Assembly: GCA_963762145.1 (NCBI GenBank)
Contig: CAVXJS010000009.1
Span: 480,001 to 544,000, forward strand
DNA: 64,000 nucleotides
Source: an uncultured Candidatus Rokubacteria bacterium
GTDB lineage: Bacteria; Methylomirabilota; Methylomirabilia; Rokubacteriales; CSP1-6
Direction of reading: 5' to 3'
Position 1 is the stretch's first letter. Each line of letters starts with the position of its first letter. This document shows positions 43,349 through 55,520 of this stretch, piece after piece. The position numbers were made by a program, and so were the translations under genes. The notes beneath the pieces are model-generated. The model had not been told where the DNA came from. It did no database searches and worked only from the letters and a program-made list of their open reading frames with translations.

Positions 43349-44894
43349 CTAACTCTCCCGGTAGATGATGAGGAGAGCGCCGACGAGCACGAGGCCGACG
43401 GCCCAGAGCGCCCCGGGCACGCGCCGGCGCCCCTCGGGGAGCCGGAGCTCGAGCCAGCGCCCCCAGCCGATCACCAGGGCCAGCAGGCCGAGCGGCGCGT
43501 GGGTCACCTCGAGCAGGAACTCGTCCTTGAGATTCTGCGCGGCGTGCGAGTGGCTCAGGAGCATGCCACCGCCGACCACGCAGAGCAGCGGGAAGATCAG
43601 GGCCGCGCGCCGCGATGCGAGGCGCCCGCTGCGGACCATCCACTCGAAGATGCCGAAGACGATGACGAGCAGCACGAAGAACCGGTGCTGGGCCACCGTC
43701 GCGACGAGCCAGCCCTCCCAGAAGCCCTCGGGGCCGAGCGGCCACGACCCGGGATCGTTGCGCACGATCATGAAGGCGGCCAGGCCCAGGAAGACCAGCG
43801 GCCAGTGCCGCGCCCAGCGCGCCCGCCCGGTCGTGTGCAGCAGGGCCAGCAGACCCATGATGAGCACGAGGATCCCGGAGACGTGATGGTTGAACTCCGA
43901 CCAGGCGCGATCGGCGTCGTTGCGGGGGGCCAGCGGATCGTCGACCGGCATCTCCGAGATCGAGGGCGAGCGGAGCGACGGCATCCGCGGCGTGAAGCGC
44001 GTCGCGACCTCCGCGAGCGTGGCCCGATCGTGGGTGAGATCCACCGCGGGGGGCAGCGAGGTGAGCGAGGCCGCCGCGAAGAGCACGGTGAGGCCCAGGC
44101 CGACCTCGACCTCCACGAAGCGGCGCAGCGTGAGCTGGTCGGCCTCGGGCGCGCCGTCCATGCGGCGGATCGCGCGGGAGTTCAGCGCCCCCAGCACGAG
44201 CAGGCCGCCGAAGATCGCCACCTTGGTCAGCACCATGAGGCCGTAGGCGGTGCCGACGATCGCGGTCTGATCCGGGGCGTAGTTCCAGGTGAGGCCCACG
44301 CCCGCGGCCACCAGGACCGCGACCGAGGCCAGCGCCAGGTTCGAGAACCGCCGCAGCAGGGCCACCGGCCAGGGCCGGTCGCCGCGCCCGAACGCGGCCG
44401 CGGTCAGGTGCACGAGCCCGCCGATCCACACCGCGGCGCCCAGCTGATGGAGGCCGTCGAGCACCAGCAGCAGGGCGCGGGAGTCGAGCCGCGCCGCGGC
44501 GTGGCTGGTCCACGGGGCGGCCACCACCAGCACCGCGCCCAGCGCGACCACTGCGGGCCAGAGCCGCGACGGCCCGCCCGCGCGCCGCAGCCCGACGGCG
44601 CACGCGGCGAGGGCGAGCCCGGCCACGATCCGGACGACGCTCACCTGCACGTACAGCGTGTCGAGCGCCGCGCGCAGCGGCCAGGCCGCCTCGTGGAGGA
44701 GCACGAATAGCTCGTTGGCCAGCGACAGGGCCTGGCCCAGCGCGAGCGTGGTCGCGGCGACCGCGATGAGCAGCAGCGAGCGCGGCGCCTCGGGCCCGCG
44801 GGCCACGAGCAACAGGAAGCACACGCCGCCCACCGCGGTGGCCTGCGCGGCGAGGATCAGGCCGCGCAGCAGGACGTCGAGAACGGCAGAGCAT
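43349..44894 (-). CDS. CopD-family copper resistance/uptake membrane protein with C-terminal extension
   Basis: TSHAA, LHQLGAAVWIGGL, RRFS, YG..L.K; C-terminal SEFNHH, QH, HSH. Indel at the start. Confidence 0.8.
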
Positions 44895-44895
44895 G

Positions 44896-46068
44896 TCAGG
44901 CCGCCCGGCGTCGCCCCGTGCCCCACCGGACCAGCACATGAAGATCGGCGTGCCGAGCGCGACCGGGATCAGGAACCAGTGGGCCCGCCCGAAACAGGCC
45001 AGCACGAGCACGAGGTAGATGAAGTCGCGGTTGGCCACCGCGTCGGCCAGGCGGCCGGGCGGCGCCCGCGGCGGCGCCGCCGCGACGAGCGACGAGATAG
45101 GCGGACGCGGCGGTGCCGGTGATCGCCAGCGCGCCCAGGAGCAGCGGCCAGCGCGAGGCCTCGGCCAGGCTCCAGCCCGACCGCCATGCACCCGAACACC
45201 GCCACGTGGACGACGTTGTCGCCCCAGAAGTCGAGGCGCGCCCCGGTGGGCGACTCCTGGAACTTCAGCCGCGCCAGCTCGCCGTCGCAGCCGTCGAGGA
45301 TCGAGTGGGTCAGGAAGAGCAGCGCCCCGGCGACTGCTGCCAGCGGCTCCGCGGACAGGAAGAACGGCGCGCCCGAGCAGGCCGATGGCGAGGCTCACCA
45401 GGGTCATCGCGTTGGGGGTGATGCGCGTGCCCACGCAGCCGCCGGGTCAGCGCGAGCGAGATGCGCCGCTCGACGTGGCGCGACATGAAGCCCTCGCTGT
45501 CCTTGATGAGGCTCCGCAGGAGCCAGGCCTCGGCGGCCCGCGCGCCGGCGGCGCCCCCGAGCGCGAAGCGGCCGGCCGGATCGCCCGCCTCGGTGGTGCG
45601 CGGCCAGGCGCCCGGACAGCGCGGTGATCAGGTCCTCGCGCGCCGACGGCCTGGCCGCGCCGGCGCAGCACCTCGTCGATCCCCGCGCTCTCCACCACCG
45701 CGGTCAGCGACGAATCGACCGCGAGCGTCTCGGGACTCCAGCGGCATCTCGCGCAGGGCGCGCAGCCAGCGCGCCTGGGGGAGGACGTTGGCGGGCACCA
45801 GGACGAGCCGGGCCCGCGGCGCCAGCGGCGTGTCGGCATCGAGCGCGAACCGCCGCGGTGCCCGCGAGCAGGTGCGGCTCCTGACAGGCCTCGGGATGCA
45901 CCAGGATCCGCTCGAAGCCGGCCGCGCTTCGCGGCCAGCGCGATGCGCCGCACGCAGCGGCAGGCCCGCGACACGGTTCCGGGCGGCGGGGAGCCGCGCG
46001 TCCGCCGGGGCCGGCAGGATCACGAGGAAGCTCCGCACGGAGACGGCCGCGGAGGAGAGCGTGGTCAC
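44896..46068 (-). CDS. CDP-alcohol phosphatidyltransferase family protein with N-terminal extra domain (heavily frameshifted)
   Basis: ITPNAMT; ILDGCDGELARLKF..S..G..LDFWGDNVVH; ANRDF. Confidence 0.8.
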
Positions 46069-47107
46069 CGGGCCGATCCGACCCGCGTGGCCAGGGGGAG
46101 CAGCACGCCGCCGCGGCGGCTCGACTCGCGCGCGCCGCACTCGACCGCGACGCAGACCGCCGCCTCGGCGAGATTGCGGCTCCGTCGGCGCCCGGCCGAG
46201 CACGCGGGCGAGAACGCGTCGGCGACCGGGCCGAACCAGTCGGGATGCTGGGAGCCGTCGGACAGCGCGGGCGGGCGCCGGCCACGCTCGCTCGCGCGCC
46301 GTCCGCGCGGAGGACCACGGTGTCGTCCTCGAAGCTCGATGCGTCCCGGCGGCGCCGATCAGTGGGCCCGGTTGCGCCGCTCTCCGCGGCCCACGTCAGG
46401 ACGATGTCCGCCACGGCGTCCGGGAAGGTGCAGGCGCACCGTCGCGGTGTCCTCGACCGCGAAGCGATGGTGGCGCCGCGTCTCGAGACGGGCGCTGCAC
46501 GGCGCGCGGCGCAGGCGCCGAGCCAGCGCTGGACCACGTAGAAGACGTGCCAGCCGTGATCGGTCAGCACGCCGCCGCCCGCGACCGCCGGGTCGAGCCG
46601 CCAGTTGCTCGCCCTGCCGTCGCCGCGGCGGCCGGCTGGGTGCGCAGCGTCTGCCAGGCGACGCGCGCGCACCGGCCCGATCGCGCCCTCGCGGAGGAGC
46701 TCGGCGGCGCGCGGACGATGGGCGCGTGGTGCCAGTTGTGCACGGTGTGGAGCACGCGCGCGCGCGGCGCGCGCGAGCCCGGCCACGGCGCTCGAGCTCG
46801 GCGAGCGAGCCCACCAGCGGCTTCTCGCAGAGCACGTGCAGGCCGCGCGCGAGCGCGGCCTCGATCAGGGCCGCGTGGCTCGACGGCGGCGTGCAGACGT
46901 CGACGAAGTCGAGTCGTCCGCGGCCAGCAGGGACTCGACGCGAGTCGTACCAGCGCGCGCCGGGCAGGCGCGGCCCGGCACTCGGCCTGCCGCGCGGGGT
47001 GGAGTCGGTGGCGGCGACGATCATCGACGTCGGGCCGCTCGCGCCAGCCGGGCAGGTGGCCGTGCACGGCCACGTTGCCGAGGCCGATGATCGCGCCCCG
47101 GAGTCAT
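46065..47107 (-). CDS. Gfo/Idh/MocA family oxidoreductase (frameshifted)
   Basis: IIGLGNVA, DVCTPP..H, HVLCEKP, AGGGVLTDHGWH, VEDTA. Confidence 0.85.
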
Positions 47108-47108
47108 C

Positions 47109-48461
47109 CTAGTCTCGAGCCCATGCGCGCTTGAGCGTCACTCCGAGCGCTTCGTCCAGGATCGCGAGGCCGGCCCAGCGCCTGTGTCCTCGCGTGATCA
47201 CGAGGGGCGGATTGATGCCGGATCGTCGGCGCATAGGTCATGGCACGAGCCCGCGCCGCAGGCACTCCTGGTAGAGGTCCCGGGTGACGCTCCTTGTCGA
47301 GCGGCTCCTTGCGCTCTGCCGGTCCTCGACCAGCTCCATGCCGAGCAGCAGCCCGCTGCCGCGCACCTCGCCGACCGCGCGGTACTTCTCCTTCATCGCC
47401 TGGAGCTCGGCGAGCATGACCGCGCCGACGCGCTCGGACGTGCTCGACGAGGTCCTCCTTCAGGATGATCTCGAGCGCGGCGAGCCCGGCCGCCGAGGCG
47501 AGCGGATTGCCGCCGTAGCTCGACGAGCTCGAGCTCGGATTGGACCAGGGCTTGGCCGCGGTGAGCGTCTCGGTGGAGACGACGGCGGCCAGCGGGAAGC
47601 CGCCGCCCATGCCCTTGCCCACCGTCATGATGTCGGGCACGACGCCGTCGTGCTCGGCGCCCCACATCGAGCCCGGTGCGCCCGAAGCCGGTGATCATCT
47701 CGTCGGCGAAGAAGCAGCGCGCCGTGATCCTTGGCGATCGACTGCGATCGCGCGCAGGAAGCCGTCGGGCGGGATGATGTTGCCCGCGGTGCCCTGGATC
47801 GGCTCCACGATGATCGCGGCGATCTCGCCCGCGGTCTGGTAGCGGATGACGTCGCGAACGTAGTCCGCGCAGGCGATGCCGCAGTCGGGATAGCGTGAGC
47901 TTGCAGCGGGCAGCGGTAGCAGTCCGCATAGGGCGTCGAGGTGCTGGCCGGGCAGGAACGGGCCCCAGGTGATGCTTGAAGTCGCTGCCGAGGAGGCCCG
48001 AGCACGCCGCCGGTCTTGCCGTGGAAGCCGCCCCAGAAGCCGATGACCTCGTGCTTCCCGGTCGCCGCCTTGGCGAGCCGCAGCGCCGGCCTCCACCGCC
48101 TCCGCGCCGCCCGAGAAGAGCTGGATGCGCGTCGAGGCCCGCGGGGGTGACGGACGCCGAGCAGCTCGAGGAAGCGGGCGCGCGTCTCGGTGGTGAAGCT
48201 GCCGAAGGTGAGCCGCTCGACCTGGCGCTTGAGCGCCTCGACGTAGTGCGGATGGCAGTGCCCGACGCTGCCGACGCGCGATGCCCGCGATGAAGTCGAT
48301 GTACTCGTTGCCGTCCTCGTCGATGAGCGTCGCAGCCCTGGCCGCGCGCCATGGCCAGCCCGGAGTAGAGCGCGAAGGACTGGAAGCCCGGCGCGATGTG
48401 GCGCTGCCTCGCGCGCCACGATCTCCCGCGAGCGCGGCCCCGGCTCGCGCCGCTCGCTCAT
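47109..48461 (-). CDS. Class III PLP-dependent aminotransferase (frameshifted)
   Basis: DEDGNEYIDF, GHCHP, SGGAEAVE, FHGKT, EPIQG.AG, DEMITGFGRTG, PDIMTVGKGMGGG, YGGNP. Confidence 0.88.
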
Positions 48462-49352
48462 CGCCCGCCTCCCGCAGTCCGCCGGGCGCCGAAGCGCAGC
48501 GCCAGGTAGGCGGCGATGACCGGCGCGGCCTCGTCTCGGTAGAGCGCGAAGCTCGGCCACGCGTTGAGGTCGAGGAGCAGGAGGCCGCCGTCCGCGGTGG
48601 CGATGGCGTCGCCGCCGTAGATCTCGAGCCCGAGCGCGGCCGCCGCGTCGCCGCGCGAGGCGCGCGAGCCGGCCGCGGGTCGAAGGGATGCCCGGCCAGG
48701 CGTCTGATCCTTGTGGTAGAACCAGCGGAACCAGGGCGGCCCGCCGTCGGGACCGCCGCCGCCGGGCCGACGCCGTAGAACTTGATGAGATCGCCGGCCA
48801 CGTGCGGCTGCAGCACCGCGCCGCGCGATCCCGCGGGCGCGCGAGGCCGGCCGAGCGCGGCCGCGACCGCGCGCGTCCGTCTCCGCGAAGACGACGTCGC
48901 CCTCCTGCGTGTTGTGCACGTCGCCCCGCTTGACCCAGACCGGCAGGCGCGCGGGCGCCGGCGATGTCGGCCCGGAGTCGCCACGAGCCGGCTCGTGCAC
49001 GAACGGCACGCCGGCCTCATCGAAGCTGGGCGATCATCCGCTCGCGGTAGGTGTCGAGGACGGCGGCGGCGACGTTGACGATGCGGACGCCGTCCCGCTC
49101 CCACGCGGCGAGCTGCGCCAGCACCTCCTCGCGCTCGCACATGAAGAAGATCGCGCGCGGGCGGCGCCTCGGTGGGCCACGCGACGCTCCTCCGGGTCCT
49201 CGGAGCTCGACCTGGACGCCGCGCGCCTCGAGGTGCTTGCCGGTCAGGCGCAGGATCTCCGCGTCGTCGTTCTCGCGCCCCGGCGAATGCGCCCGCTCGC
49301 GGAAGATTCCCCAGCAGGTCAGATCGGCCACCCCCGTCCTCCTCGCGCTCAT
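48458..49352 (-). CDS. ATP-grasp fold hypothetical protein (frameshifted)
   Basis: WVKRGD, LQPHVAGDLIKFY, LGLEIYGGD, LDLNAWPSF (ATP-grasp-like D..DxN). Confidence 0.65.
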
Positions 49353-50072
49353 GTCCGTCGCGCTCCTCGCGCCAGCGCCTCGGCGCTGGCCACATCCTCC
49401 GCCCGGTCGACGTCGACGACCGTCTCGATGATCTCCCCGTAGAGCGGCTGGCCGCTGTCGTGCAGCCACCCCAGGTAGCTCGCGCAGCCGCCCGAGGTCC
49501 CGCGGCGGCGTCGAGGCGCCGCGCCCGCTCTGGGCACGAGGTACATCCCCGCGGTGACCAGACGCGCCGCCGCCGTCGCCGAGCGCCTTCCACGCGGCCG
49601 CCGCGCCTCGAGCGACGACCCACAGCGGCTTCTCGTCCGCGACGAACGGGGTGACCGCGAGCACGGTGGCGTCGTCGGGCCGGGACGCGGCAGCCGCTCG
49701 ACGAAGCGCGCGAAGTCCGCCGGCCGCGCACCACGCGTCGACCGTGGACACGAGCAGCGGCCCCGCGTGCCCGCGGCCGGTCACCTCGCGGAAGCTCTCG
49801 AGCGACGACGCGGTGGTCTTGACGATGAAGTCGATCGTCGAGCGCGGGGAACCGCGTCGCGGACCCACTCCACGCAGTCCCGCTCCTGCTCGTTGACGAT
49901 GATGGCGAGCGCGCGTGATCCCCGCCGTCGTCGAAGTTGCGCAGCACGCGCCTCGATCAGGGGCACGCCCGGCCACCTCCACCAGCGGCTTCGGCACCCG
50001 GTAGCCGTCCGCGCGCAGGCGGCTGCCCTCGCCGGCCGCGATGATGCCGCCTCGAATCGCACTCGCGCTCAC
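49349..50072 (-). CDS. Nucleotidyltransferase (NTP transferase family; frameshifted)
   Basis: GIIAAGEGSRL...PKPLVEV, STVD, DEKPL, DVDR. Confidence 0.85.
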
Positions 50073-50753
50073 GAGCAGCAAGGCCTCCACGCTCCGTCAA
50101 CGAATGGACCACGCGGTCGCCCGGGCAGCACGGCCCGCCGGGCGGCGGCGGGGCCGCGACCAGCCAGATGTGCCGCATGCCGAGGGCCCGCGCGCCCTCC
50201 ATGTCCCGGGCCGCCGAATCGCCCACGAACACGGCGTCGATCGGGCGCCACCCCCAGCCCGTCCAGCGCCTGCATGAAGATGCGCGGATCGGGCTTGGAG
50301 AATCCGACCCGGACCGAGTCGACGATGACGCCGAAGAGAGACCGGATCGCCGTAGTTATGACACACGGTCGTCGAGGTTGCCATAGAAGTTGGACACGAT
50401 GCCGAGCCGATAGCGCGCGCCGAGCCGCGCGAGCAGCGGCCGGTTCCGTCGCAGATGGCGGTGGGCGTCGTCGAGGAACCGGTCGGCGACGCGCGCGATC
50501 ACCCGCTCGTCGCGCACCGCGAGCCCGGCGGCGATGTTCGCGGTGAGGCGCCGCACCGTCTCGTCGAACGACAGCGTGACCGGGATCGCGTCCACGAGCG
50601 CGTCGTCGGCGCGGTAGAAGACGGGATCGAAGGCCTCCGGGCGGTCCGCCGCGCCCTCGGCGCGCCAGAGGCCGAAGAAGCGCTCCTTCCACGTCACCCC
50701 GTCGGCGTCGAGCGTGCCCCCGAAGTCGAAGAGCAGCGCACGCGGATGCTCAG
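50069..50753 (-). CDS. HAD family hydrolase (frameshifted)
   Basis: LLFDFGGTLDADG, VSNFYGNL, KPDPRIF, VGDS..RD. Confidence 0.85.
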
Positions 50754-52769
50754 ACAGGCGCGACCTCCACCGCCGCGTCGAACGCGGCCTGGCCGGCCGA
50801 GAACCCGAACACGTCCACCGCCGCGTCCGGGATGCACGCCGCGCCGGAGGTGAGCCGGTTGAGGCCGTCCCACCCGTCTCGCATCCAGACGGTGCGCGCG
50901 GGCACGCGATCGGTCACGCGGGCGCGGGCGCGCATCTCGCCGCGCTCGTTGAACACGCGCACCGCGGCGCCGTCCGCCACCGCGCGCGCGACCGCGTCGG
51001 CGGGCGACAGCCACAGCACCGGCTCGGGCTCGAGCGCGGCCAGCGACGGCAGGGCCCGCCCGTGATCGTAGAAGCCGTGGAAGTGCCCGAGGGTGCGCCC
51101 CTGGCGGAGCACGAGGGGGAAGCGCCCGGCCGGGAGATCCTCGTGCACCGGCAAGGGGGCCAGGCCGAGGCTCTCCGCGCGCGCCGAGTAGAGCTCCACC
51201 TTTCCGGACGGCGTGGGGAACACCAGATCCGGATGGCCCACCGACGACACGCGGAGCGCGCGCATCCCGCCCTCCGCGCGCAGGGCCGCCACCGTGGCGT
51301 GCCCGGTGGCCGGGTGATCGAGGATCGCGTCGATGGGCCCCGCCGCGTCCGCCCACGGATAGAAGTCGGCGATCTCGAGGCGGCGCGCGAGCTCCTGCAG
51401 GACCCACGCGCCGGGGCGCGTCTCGCCCCGCGGGCGGCAGGGCCGGCTCCATCAGGTAGAGATGCGTGTTGGTCGCCTTGCAGCCGAGCTCCTCGAGCCA
51501 CGACGTGCCGGGCAGGACGACGTCCGCGAAGCGGCGCGCGGTGTCGTTCCAGAAGAGCTCGTGGCTGACGATCAGGTCCTGGCGCGCGAGCGCGGCCTCG
51601 ACGCGGGCGCTGTCCGCGAACGACGAGAGCATGTCGGTGCCGAAGAGCAGCAGCGCGCGGACCCGGCCGGTCTCGAGCGCCTCGGTGATGCGCGGCATCT
51701 GGTTCGGCACGTAGTCGCCGGGCGGCCGCCGCTCGGCGAGCGCGATGTCGGTGAGGCCAAAGCCGTGCCCCTTGCTGCCGTGGCGCGGGCCCAGGCCGCC
51801 CCCCGCGATCCCCAGGTTGCCGGTGAGCGCGGGCAGGCACGCCACCGCGCGCGCGCCCTGCCAGCCGTTGGCGCCCTTGTGCATGCTGCTGCCGCCCAGC
51901 ACGATCATGGCCGGCCGCGTGCCCGCGTAGCGGCGGGCCAGGCCCACGATCACCGCCTCGTCGAGGCCGGTGACCGCGGCGGCCCACGCGGGCGGGTGCC
52001 GACGCACGTGCTCGGCGAGGGCCTCGAAGCCGGTGGTGTGCCGCGCGACGAACTCCCGGTCGCAGAGATCCTCCGCGACGAGCACGTGCATGATGCCGAG
52101 GGCGAGCGCCGCGTCGGTGCCGGGTCGGATGATCAGCACCTCGTCCGACTGCGCGGCGGCCTCGGTCCGGCGCACGTCGATCGTGACCACGTGGGCGCCG
52201 CGGCGACGCGCGGCCACCAGATGCGGGGCGGTGTTCGGCTGGCTCGCGAGATTTGCGCCCCACAGCACGATCAGCTGCGCGTGCGCCCCCATGTCCTCCT
52301 TGGTATTGGTCTCGAGCGGACCGGTGAGGCCGATGCCGAACCCGCCGAGCCCCCAGCAGATCATGGTGGGCGCCCACCACTGGCAGCCCCAGAGATTGGC
52401 GAAGCGTCGAAGGAGCTCCGAGTTGACGCGCGTGCCGTAGTTGTTGGCGAAGAAGCCGTGGCCCGACCAGAGCCCGACCGCCTCGCGCCCGACCGACCGG
52501 AGCGCTTCCGCGATGCGATCGAGCGCCGCGTCCCACGTCACCTCCCGGAACGGCGCGTCCCGGCGGTCGCGCGCGAGAGGGGTCAGCAAGCGCTGCGGGT
52601 TTCCGATGATCTCGCGCGAGGCGTGGCCGCGCACGCAGAGGAAGCCGCGGCTGTCGGGATTGTCCGGGTCGCCCGCGACCTCGACGAGCCGCCCGTCCTC
52701 GACGGTGACCAGCATCCCGCAGAGGGTCGGATGGCAGTTCATGGGGCACATGGTGCGGATGGTGGCCAT
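50750..52769 (-). CDS. Molybdopterin-dependent oxidoreductase with N-terminal Fe-S motif (one frameshift at ~51420)
   Basis: CPMNCHPTLCG...LCVRG, WGAN, PGTDAALA, ADVVLP, FPTPSGK, C-terminal molybdopterin-binding domain. Confidence 0.9.
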
Positions 52770-52785: not shown

Positions 52786-55469
<2,684 letters not shown>

Positions 55470-55520
55470 AGGACGGGTATTATACGCCCGGCGTCAGACC
55501 CCCGGAATCGGGCGCCGGAA

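Follow-up and report, generated by a model that had tools for sequence, protein, structure and literature searches.

A six-gene operon in a Rokubacteria genome

The window analyzed here is a 64-kb stretch of DNA (64,000 nucleotides; contig CAVXJS010000009.1, positions 480,001 to 544,000 of the forward strand, assembly GCA_963762145.1) from an uncultured Candidatus Rokubacteria bacterium, with a G+C content of about 73%. Its minus strand carries a six-gene operon at positions 44896-50757. An initial annotation, made from the sequence alone, had named six gene families at 44896-50753 joined by overlapping or adjacent start and stop codons, and all six families are indeed present. The window's own minus-strand stop-to-stop pieces match them only as fragments (CDP-OH_P_transf, the N- and C-terminal domains of GFO_IDH_MocA, Aminotran_3 in four pieces, and a HAD-like piece), which fall in the order first listed. 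The Pfam and NCBIfam identities of the proteins were read on an intact orthologous locus from the same genus, L007, and the gene coordinates in the window were mapped from it.

The operon opens with a haloacid dehalogenase (HAD)-superfamily hydrolase of about 220 amino acids (50069 to about 50733/50757), the orthologue of which matches the Pfam families Hydrolase, HAD_2, and Hydrolase_like. It is followed by a nucleoside triphosphate (NTP) transferase of about 233 amino acids (49349-50069; NTP_transf_3, 6.8e-10, and NTP_transferase, 7.3e-8) and a 291-amino-acid enzyme (48458-49352) that has no Pfam or NCBIfam model and was assigned to the ATP-grasp enzymes by its AlphaFold fold. Next are a class III (GABA-aminotransferase-like) pyridoxal phosphate-dependent aminotransferase of about 440 amino acids (47109-48461; Aminotran_3, E value of 6.2e-101 for the orthologue) and a Gfo/Idh/MocA NAD(P)-dependent oxidoreductase of about 347 amino acids (46065-47124; GFO_IDH_MocA and C-terminal domains). 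The last gene encodes a cytidine diphosphate (CDP)-alcohol phosphotransferase of 388 amino acids (44896-46068; CDP-OH_P_transf). All six genes are on the minus strand.

The coupling of start and stop codons holds at all five internal junctions of L007. The HAD and NTP transferase genes overlap by 1 nucleotide (TGATG), the NTP transferase and ATP-grasp genes meet at ATGA, and GTGA is found both between the ATP-grasp and aminotransferase genes and between the oxidoreductase and transferase genes. The overlaps are, therefore, 1-4 nucleotides at four of the five junctions and about 14 nucleotides at the fifth, between the aminotransferase and the oxidoreductase.

No ATG, GTG, or TTG was found upstream of the catalytic motif of the HAD gene (L007:1480-1545; window about 50710-50757). 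Immediately ahead of LFDFGGT, seven same-genus loci have the codon CTG, and one has GTG. Judging from the sequence, the HAD gene likely starts at a CTG near 50733, 17 nucleotides after the stop of a molybdopterin oxidoreductase gene.

In this genus, the operon is flanked by that molybdopterin oxidoreductase (formate-dehydrogenase/DMSO-reductase-like; 50750-52769, minus strand) and by a CopD-like membrane protein (43349-44894), which begins 1 nucleotide past the transferase stop. The operon may share a transcript with both genes in this genus; its neighbors in other genera are different. A scan of the window against Rfam at gathering thresholds gave no match.

Frameshifts in the window copy

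The G+C signal at third codon positions changes frame every 100-200 bases from 44.9 to 50.8 kb, and 10-13 reading-frame switches per 2 kb were counted at the operon compared to 1-5 in most of the window. Frameshifts were located in an alignment of eight correctly oriented same-genus loci covering window positions 43396-52253, as tblastn searches of orthologue proteins against the window were too noisy for frameshift counts at 73% G+C. The window copy carries 83 insertions and 11 deletions that are private to it and shift the frame, 94 in total, while each of the other seven loci has 0-2. Nearly all of these indels are single-base, and all but one lie between 44887 and 50371. When the private indel columns were skipped, there were no stops in the 1,872 codons compared across the six genes, and the ratio of nonsynonymous to synonymous substitution rates (dN/dS) of the window copy against its nearest relative was 0.28-0.35. 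The same ratio between pairs of intact orthologues was 0.09-0.31, indicating purifying selection.

One explanation for the frameshifts is that the operon has decayed in this genome into a non-functional array of pseudogenes. So many frameshifting indels in 5.5 kb, nearly confined to the operon, could be seen as decay, as could the clean reading of the flanking CopD gene and most of the molybdopterin oxidoreductase gene. True decay, however, would leave stops and relaxed substitutions, whereas no stop remains here and dN/dS is close to that of the intact orthologues. The large excess of insertions over deletions and their single-base nature also argue against decay, as do the operon's retention in 20 of 20 same-genus genomes and the presence of other patches of frame switching in the window, and the essential alaS gene is split as well. 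The pseudogene reading is very improbable and was rejected based on the indel pattern, the stop-free codons, dN/dS, and the split alaS. Since removing the indels leaves no stops and a dN/dS of 0.28-0.35, we judge from the sequence that the 94 indels are assembly errors, with gene decay excluded as their cause. The genome, therefore, very probably carries a working copy of the operon, and the initial annotation was right to ask for the reads to be polished. A search for sequencing runs gave 20 from soil or rhizosphere, with no more than 0.30 of the sampled words in any of them, and these runs are not used here as evidence on the indels or the habitat.

The assembly of the window has local patches of indel errors, and gene calls within them are unreliable. 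A lone private frameshift lies in the molybdopterin oxidoreductase gene at 51424. The alanyl-tRNA synthetase gene (alaS; 52786-55500, minus strand) is split over at least two overlapping frames, with the open reading frames (ORFs) 52786-54558 and 53886-54968 covering different parts of tRNA-synt_2c; this region looks like a further patch of assembly indel errors. Frame switching is also raised at 54-58 kb. Between 10000 and 18000, G+C falls to 0.60-0.68, the AT skew is strong at 16-18 kb, frame switches are numerous, and the ORFs include a PMT_2-type and two family-2 glycosyltransferases. This region may be either a horizontally acquired island for cell-envelope glycosylation or a low-quality patch.

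Conservation of the operon across phyla

The 5.8-kb stretch was matched in all 20 same-genus genomes, at 75-89% nucleotide identity, and in three of the four genomes that represent other genera of the family. Only short matches, nearly all of them within the aminotransferase gene, were seen in the 16 genomes of the order's other families. At least 5.4 kb was matched in one place in 14 of the 41 genomes searched, the remainder being cut by contig ends.

More distant relatives were sought with an ATP-grasp profile in species-representative genomes. At least 594 relatives were confirmed, and 80 loci were taken for analysis, with their family content determined by local profile searches. All six families were found in 43 of the 80 loci, and the aminotransferase and/or the oxidoreductase in 63; most of the incomplete loci are cut by contig ends. 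The order HAD, NTP transferase, ATP-grasp, aminotransferase, oxidoreductase, transferase is seen in Rokubacteria, Nitrospirota, Acidobacteriota, Verrucomicrobiota, Thermodesulfobacteriota/Myxococcota, Alpha- and Betaproteobacteria, Chloroflexota, and Elusimicrobiota, and is permuted in Ignavibacteriota and Gemmatimonadota. The same gene order is thus present in at least nine phyla, and the gene set of the initial annotation is conserved together in the genus, in other genera of the family, and across phyla.

The oxidoreductase and aminotransferase, hereafter the amination pair, are missing from 17 loci, including all eight from Bacteroidales. The Bacteroidales loci encode the NTP transferase, the ATP-grasp orthologue, the transferase, an LPG_synthase_TM protein, and the HAD, followed in five of the eight by inositol-3-phosphate synthase (MIPS). 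On a tree of the ATP-grasp protein, presence of the aminotransferase flips at least four to five times while the ATP-grasp gene itself is retained; this was a quick tree with support only from the Shimodaira-Hasegawa-like approximate likelihood ratio test (SH-aLRT), and 5 of its 89 rows were ungrouped. The amination pair is an optional module, repeatedly gained or lost, on a four-gene core. Amination is, therefore, an add-on to this core, and it is not the reason for the presence of the ATP-grasp enzyme.

Additional gene copies were seen in two phyla. In eight Acidobacteriota loci (L029, L032-L034, L036, L038, L042, and L049), a second, divergently transcribed set of HAD, ATP-grasp, and transferase genes lies 5-8 kb from the main operon, which is without its own HAD. 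A branch with an SH-aLRT of 81 has these second ATP-grasp copies all on one side, and together with the copies of L037, L050, and L051, which are without an NTP transferase, they form a clade with a support of 100. In six Verrucomicrobiota loci (L057, L061, L066, L069, L075, and L089), the genes upstream of the operon include two more for CDP-alcohol transferases, another for an NTP transferase, and one for a GNAT protein, and downstream is a class I/II aminotransferase (Aminotran_1_2) that could be serine-palmitoyltransferase-like.

Association with inositol-3-phosphate synthase

MIPS is the sole further gene family seen next to the cluster in many of the sampled phyla. In 41 of the 80 loci (33 of the 63 with the amination pair and 8 of the 17 without), it was found no more than about 6 kb from the ATP-grasp gene, either as the long form (PF07994 and PF01658) or as the short, mycothiol-type form. 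All-against-all clustering of stop-to-stop ORFs chained neighbors together at high G+C and was, therefore, used only to spot the long form and a few neighboring genes, which were then confirmed with Pfam.

A sample of 201 genomes of the phylum, which includes one unpublished genome (G095) and related genomes that are not independent of each other, contained the ATP-grasp gene in 93 and MIPS in 149. MIPS was present in 90 of the 93 genomes with the ATP-grasp gene, compared to 59 of the 108 without it, and the three exceptions are only 78-88% complete. Ten genomes of other phyla in which MIPS is not adjacent were also checked. All ten carry it elsewhere, and in the four Verrucomicrobiota among them it is on the same contig, about 18-30 kb away. 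Co-occurrence with MIPS, which the initial annotation had proposed as a check, is therefore clear both beside the operon and within genomes. The initial annotation had also seen no MIPS in the window, and the copy in this genome is on another contig, C7 (126.6 bits; 522 bits to TIGR03450, for which the cut-off is 638).

This MIPS locus (C7:218001-238000; L010) also encodes an MMPL/HpnN-like transporter, MlaC, MlaE, an HpnH-like radical SAM/DUF3463 protein, and a protein resembling phosphonopyruvate decarboxylase (284 bits; cut-off 312). A paralogous transferase encoded there has the same two-domain build as the one in the window, with a dead nucleotidyltransferase domain, and is 30% identical to it. 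The gene content of this locus hints at a link to hopanoid or phosphonate lipids. In three other Rokubacteria loci (L014, L015, and L011), the paralogous transferase, MIPS, and the six-gene operon are side by side.

The CDP-alcohol phosphotransferase

The transferase consists of an N-terminal domain of about 190 amino acids with a nucleotidyltransferase fold, followed by a six-helix membrane domain. The membrane domain contains the full catalytic motif, DGCDGELARLKF.ES..GA.LDFWGD. In L007, the PF01066 motif (D-x2-D-G-x2-A-R-x7-9-G-x3-D-x3-D) reads DGCDGELARLKFLESPIGARLDFWGD, an equivalent motif is present in 59 of the 84 ORFs examined, and the Pfam score is 46.9 bits against a cut-off of 22. 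The N-terminal domain has lost the G-x-G-x-R signature, the position reading LPAPPGA in the consensus of 42 sequences, and no NTP-transferase Pfam match was found on this domain in the orthologue.

The best curated NCBIfam matches were IPCT/DIPPS (5e-21), archaetidylinositol-phosphate synthase (5e-15), and phosphatidylinositol-phosphate (PIP) synthase (2.5e-9). All are far below their cut-offs, and all of these enzymes take inositol phosphate as the acceptor. A sequence search of the PDB gave AF2299 (E value of 7.5e-20) and then the Archaeoglobus fulgidus IPCT-DIPPS (3.9e-11). The AlphaFold model, with a predicted local distance difference test (pLDDT) score of 80, has six membrane helices after a juxtamembrane helix. 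It aligned to AF2299 with a Z score of 25.8 and a root-mean-square deviation (rmsd) of 3.7 over 323 of 333 residues, and to the whole chain of IPCT-DIPPS with a Z score of 23.9; the first 190 residues alone gave Z scores of 12-13 to the nucleotidyltransferases IspD and GlmU. As stated by Clarke et al. (2015; PMC4634129), neither AF2299 nor DIPPS processes lipids, and a six-helix build goes with a soluble acceptor, while enzymes with a lipid acceptor carry three to four extra helices.

Two classes of transferase accompany the operon. One is AF2299-like with the N-terminal domain, as in this window. The other, of about 310 amino acids, is without this domain, has about 180-200 residues past the motif, and is found in Ignavibacteriota, Bacteroidota, and some Verrucomicrobiota.

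The ATP-grasp protein

The initial annotation had named the 291-amino-acid protein as ATP-grasp. The orthologue gave no Pfam or NCBIfam family match, and its best PDB sequence match was an unconvincing one to the graspetide ligase PsnB (E value of 4e-4), yet the AlphaFold model has the ATP-grasp fold. This model, built from an alignment of 74 diverse relatives, has a pLDDT of 94.7. Foldseek gave a probability of 1.0 to Ddl, ArgX, PsnB, ITPK1, and synapsin, and VIA alignment gave Z scores of 21.4-22.0 to RimK, LysX, and ArgX, with an rmsd of 2.7-3.0 over 241-249 residues. K137, D255, and N257 are invariant in the 74 sequences. We take K137 to be the ATP-binding lysine and the D255-x-N257 pair to bind Mg, by analogy. 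The orthologue matched no named ATP-grasp Pfam family above the gathering score. Among the 74 members, there were only weak hits, divided among ATPgrasp_ST (20), RimK (15), and Ins134_P3_kin (14), with a best E value of about 0.002. Foldseek, VIA-align, ESM Atlas, and these weak Pfam votes did not separate a kinase from a ligase.

The family is large, with 965 representative clusters at E values up to 1e-3, and some of its members are fused to other proteins of the operon. Four clusters are fusions of the NTP transferase and ATP-grasp proteins (P0122, P0124, P0180, and P0250), one joins HAD, NTP transferase, and ATP-grasp (P0147), and one joins ATP-grasp to the CDP-alcohol transferase. The ATP-grasp enzyme is a core part of the pathway, with a role independent of amination.

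The remaining enzymes

Motif I of the HAD protein reads D-F-G-G-T, with the second aspartate of the phosphatase motif D-x-D (the nucleophile and the general acid/base) replaced by glycine. The protein belongs to the HAD superfamily and does not have the phosphatase form of this motif. D[FYML]GGT was found in 68 of the 71 HAD ORFs of the loci. The best NCBIfam matches were to the REG-2-like and CTE7 subfamilies, all below cut-off. The substrate of the enzyme could be a phosphate that is activated or unusual. The separate NTP transferase retains the G-x-G-x-R signature (AAGEGSRL) and is presumed to be a CTP:alcohol-phosphate cytidylyltransferase.

For the aminotransferase, NCBIfam and PDB searches returned generic class III enzymes, none above a curated cut-off. 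The oxidoreductase gave generic PDB matches and weak NCBIfam matches, far below cut-off, to xylose, levoglucosan, inositol-2, and UDP-GlcNAc-3 dehydrogenases; it belongs to the broader Gfo/Idh/MocA family and, at 59.9 bits against the IolG model (TIGR04380; cut-off 355), is not an IolG equivalent. Searched against PDB sequences, the aminotransferase, oxidoreductase, and NTP transferase all matched generic family members, with no clue to the substrate. The initial annotation had compared the dehydrogenase and aminotransferase to the conversion of inosose to inosamine. Both families are present as it stated, but the aminotransferase is of class III and matches no specific family. Known inosose aminotransferases are of the DegT type, and for this reason the inosose-to-inosamine step is used here as an analogy.

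A proposed pathway and its alternatives

It seems probable, though far from certain, that the operon encodes a CDP-alcohol (Kennedy/di-myo-inositol phosphate (DIP)-type) pathway leading from MIPS-made inositol phosphate to an inositol-derived, optionally aminated phosphodiester. In this pathway, the NTP transferase would activate an inositol-derived phosphate with CTP. The oxidoreductase and class III aminotransferase would convert a ring hydroxyl to a ketone and then to an amine, either on the phosphate or on the CDP-linked form. The AF2299/DIPPS-type membrane transferase would then move the (amino)inositol phosphate from CMP to an alcohol to form the phosphodiester, and the HAD protein would remove a phosphate somewhere along the route. 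The ATP-grasp enzyme could be a kinase that, with the HAD protein, repositions the phosphate before cytidylylation, or it could be a ligase that decorates the head group. If it is a kinase, the ATP-grasp, HAD, and NTP transferase trio would shift the phosphate from the position given by MIPS to the position that is activated; HldE and GmhB form a comparable trio of kinase, phosphatase, and nucleotidyltransferase. The end product may be the head group of a membrane lipid or a soluble compound resembling di-inositol phosphate. The initial annotation had proposed a phosphodiester with an aminated, possibly amino-acylated or extra-phosphorylated, polyol or cyclitol head group. The conservation of the operon and its link to MIPS support this proposal, and we infer the placement of the amine on a cyclitol, the role of the ATP-grasp enzyme, and the lipid or solute nature of the product.

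Several observations weigh against this pathway. No enzyme reaches a curated equivalog cut-off (75 bits against 580 for DIPPS and 60 against 355 for iolG) and, therefore, no substrate can be assigned by homology. The operon is, for the same reason, treated as a variant of the CDP-alcohol/inositol theme and not as a member of a described pathway. A HAD protein without the general-acid aspartate at D+2 would be unusual for a phosphatase acting on the phosphate of a secondary alcohol. The aminotransferase is of class III, in contrast to the DegT type of the known inosose aminotransferases. The nearest structures to the ATP-grasp protein are amide ligases, and its weak Pfam votes are split three ways among sugar-transfer-associated, RimK, and inositol-trisphosphate kinase families. 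Also, this operon is not adjacent to MIPS, there being none within the 64-kb window, and MIPS is absent from the flanks of 39 of the 80 loci, although some of these are cut by contig ends.

The probability given to an inositol-derived phosphodiester is shared about evenly between a lipid and a solute. A lipid product, which is possible but doubtful, would be a phosphatidyl-inosamine-type glycerolipid or an inosamine-phosphate sphingolipid or hopanoid, made either from CDP-inosamine and a lipid alcohol or from CDP-diacylglycerol and inosamine phosphate with subsequent dephosphorylation by the HAD protein. The next-best relatives of the transferase, PIP and archaetidylinositol-phosphate synthases, are in line with this product, and the class of about 310 amino acids, with its 180-200 residues past the motif, could hold a lipid acceptor. 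Lipid-transport genes neighbor the operon in some Rokubacteria, and the genome's own MIPS locus has MMPL, MlaC/E, and HpnH-like radical SAM genes, but such neighbors are not conserved across phyla, and in this genus the flanks are the molybdopterin oxidoreductase and CopD. With CDP-diacylglycerol as the donor, the NTP transferase would also have no role. Homology links the cluster to a Bacteroidales cluster proposed to make inositol sphingolipids (Heaver et al. 2022; PMC9246714), but that article describes the functions in the Bacteroidetes pathway as "not confirmed". The transferase in the window belongs to the six-helix AF2299/DIPPS class, and because this build, following PMC4634129, weighs toward a soluble acceptor, a lipid product was not adopted outright.

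A soluble phosphodiester is rather unlikely. This product would be an aminated relative of DIP or of glycerophosphoinositol that serves as a compatible solute or a cytoplasmic metabolite, formed from a soluble CDP-alcohol and a soluble inositol-phosphate acceptor with dephosphorylation by the HAD protein afterward, as in the DIPP-to-DIP step. The transferase is closest to AF2299 and IPCT-DIPPS both in sequence and in whole predicted structure, including the cytosolic nucleotidyltransferase-like domain, and its model has the six helices of these two enzymes that do not process lipids. A dedicated soluble NTP transferase and a HAD protein also fit the logic of DIP synthesis. However, the six-helix rule is generalized from few structures, the operon of L011 has lipid-handling neighbors (genes for an MMPL/HpnN-like transporter, for MlaC, and for an ABC ATPase), and a gene resembling an MprF-type flippase lies inside the cluster of the Bacteroidales relatives. 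Moreover, DIP-type solutes are, to our knowledge, known only from (hyper)thermophiles, whereas the carriers of this operon are soil, groundwater, and gut bacteria. Another explanation is that the alcohol is a different polyol or sugar derivative, such as an amino sugar phosphate or a head group of the aminopentanetetrol or serinol type, and that the proximity of MIPS is incidental. Curated models tie none of the enzymes to inositol, nearly half of the loci (39 of 80) have no adjacent MIPS, and class III aminotransferases typically use terminal aldehydes or amines. Aminopentanetetrol phospholipids exist in Aquificales and some methanogens; no literature on their biosynthesis was found among titles and the opening lines of abstracts. 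This explanation is nevertheless improbable. MIPS is the one extra gene that recurs beside the operon across a range of phyla (41 of 80 loci) and is all but obligatory per genome (90 of 93 compared to 59 of 108, and 10 of 10 in other phyla), and the nearest characterized relatives of the transferase all bind inositol phosphate. Given the link to MIPS, an aminopentanetetrol head group is treated here as no more than a minor rival to an inositol-derived phosphodiester.

Significance

Among bacteria, lipids and phosphodiesters of inositol are regarded as rare. The operon or its four-gene core has at least 594 matches in species-representative genomes and 965 representative protein clusters. No published description of the six-gene operon was found in the literature, as judged by titles and the first lines of abstracts. 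The terms "CDP-inositol" and "ATP-grasp" were not found together in any paper in the literature search, and "phosphatidylinosamine" was found in none of the papers listed.

We tentatively suggest, as a possibility that falls short of being probable, that many soil, groundwater, sediment, and gut bacteria make an undescribed inosamine phosphodiester, either as a cationic or zwitterionic phospholipid head group or as the first DIP-like solute of a mesophile. It would be built by an AF2299-type transferase and an unrecognized ATP-grasp family shared with the proposed Bacteroidetes route. If this is true, it would give a physiological role and context to the orphan AF2299 class and its crystal structures. 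Identifying the product would add a head group or a solute to the membrane or stress biology of major uncultured soil phyla (Rokubacteria, Acidobacteriota, and Verrucomicrobiota), define the function of an ATP-grasp family without a Pfam model, and put to the test the second route to inositol sphingolipids that has been proposed for gut Bacteroidales.

Comparison with known systems

The IPCT/DIPPS pathway (A. fulgidus AF0263, PDB 4MND; Thermococcales NF041135) likewise starts from MIPS-derived inositol phosphate with a cytidylyltransferase step and needs a final phosphatase. Its transferase also has an N-terminal nucleotidyltransferase-fold domain and the juxtamembrane helix (DGF-SR..-R+-S). 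In contrast, the fused N-terminal domain here is without G-x-G-x-R, and a separate NTP transferase gene does that job. There are also three extra enzymes (ATP-grasp, oxidoreductase, and aminotransferase), and the operon is carried by mesophilic bacteria of soil, groundwater, and gut. The transferase scores 75.3 bits against the NF041135 cut-off of 580 and aligns only to profile positions 212-352 of 419. It is, therefore, not an equivalog and does not have the competent cytidylyltransferase domain of that family, while a MIPS gene is present in the genome as expected.

AF2299 of A. fulgidus (PDB 4O6M, 4O6N, and 4Q7C), a CDP-alcohol phosphotransferase crystallized with CDP-glycerol, is the best match in both sequence and structure, with the same two-domain build and a near-identical motif, DGCDGEIARLKFMES..GA.LD. 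Identity is only 22-24%, and the likeness is one of sequence and structure.

The initial annotation had likened the operon to the "alternative" inositol-lipid cluster proposed for Bacteroidetes, and the likeness extends to homology. In Bacteroides (Phocaeicola) vulgatus and Prevotella, the NTP transferase, CDP-alcohol phosphotransferase, and HAD are encoded together, and Bacteroidales loci share these three and the ATP-grasp orthologue, often followed by MIPS. In the original description (Heaver et al. 2022; PMC9246714), the cluster adjoins MIPS, and the NTP transferase, transferase, and HAD are named without any use of the word ATP-grasp. From the locus tags given there (RS13095, RS13105, and RS13115), we infer room for exactly two unnamed genes between the named ones. 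The Bacteroidales version differs in having no oxidoreductase and aminotransferase and in its shorter transferase, which is without the N-terminal domain.

The route through PIP or archaetidylinositol-phosphate synthase and a phosphatase (NF045883 and NF040950; PDB 5D92 and 6H53) shares the transferase superfamily, the inositol-phosphate acceptor, and the last-step phosphatase. Its donor is CDP-diacylglycerol or CDP-archaeol, and no soluble NTP transferase is needed there. The transferase in this operon scores only 37 bits (cut-off 170) and 56 bits (cut-off 180) against these models. Pairs of a dehydrogenase and an aminotransferase that act on activated sugars or cyclitols, converting C-OH to C=O and then to C-NH2, are known from GnnA/GnnB, WbpB/WbpE, IdhA/MosB, and ValM. 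A Gfo/Idh/MocA enzyme often carries out the first step in such pairs. Most of the partner aminotransferases are of the DegT type, while ValM and AcbV are of class III, as is the one found here.

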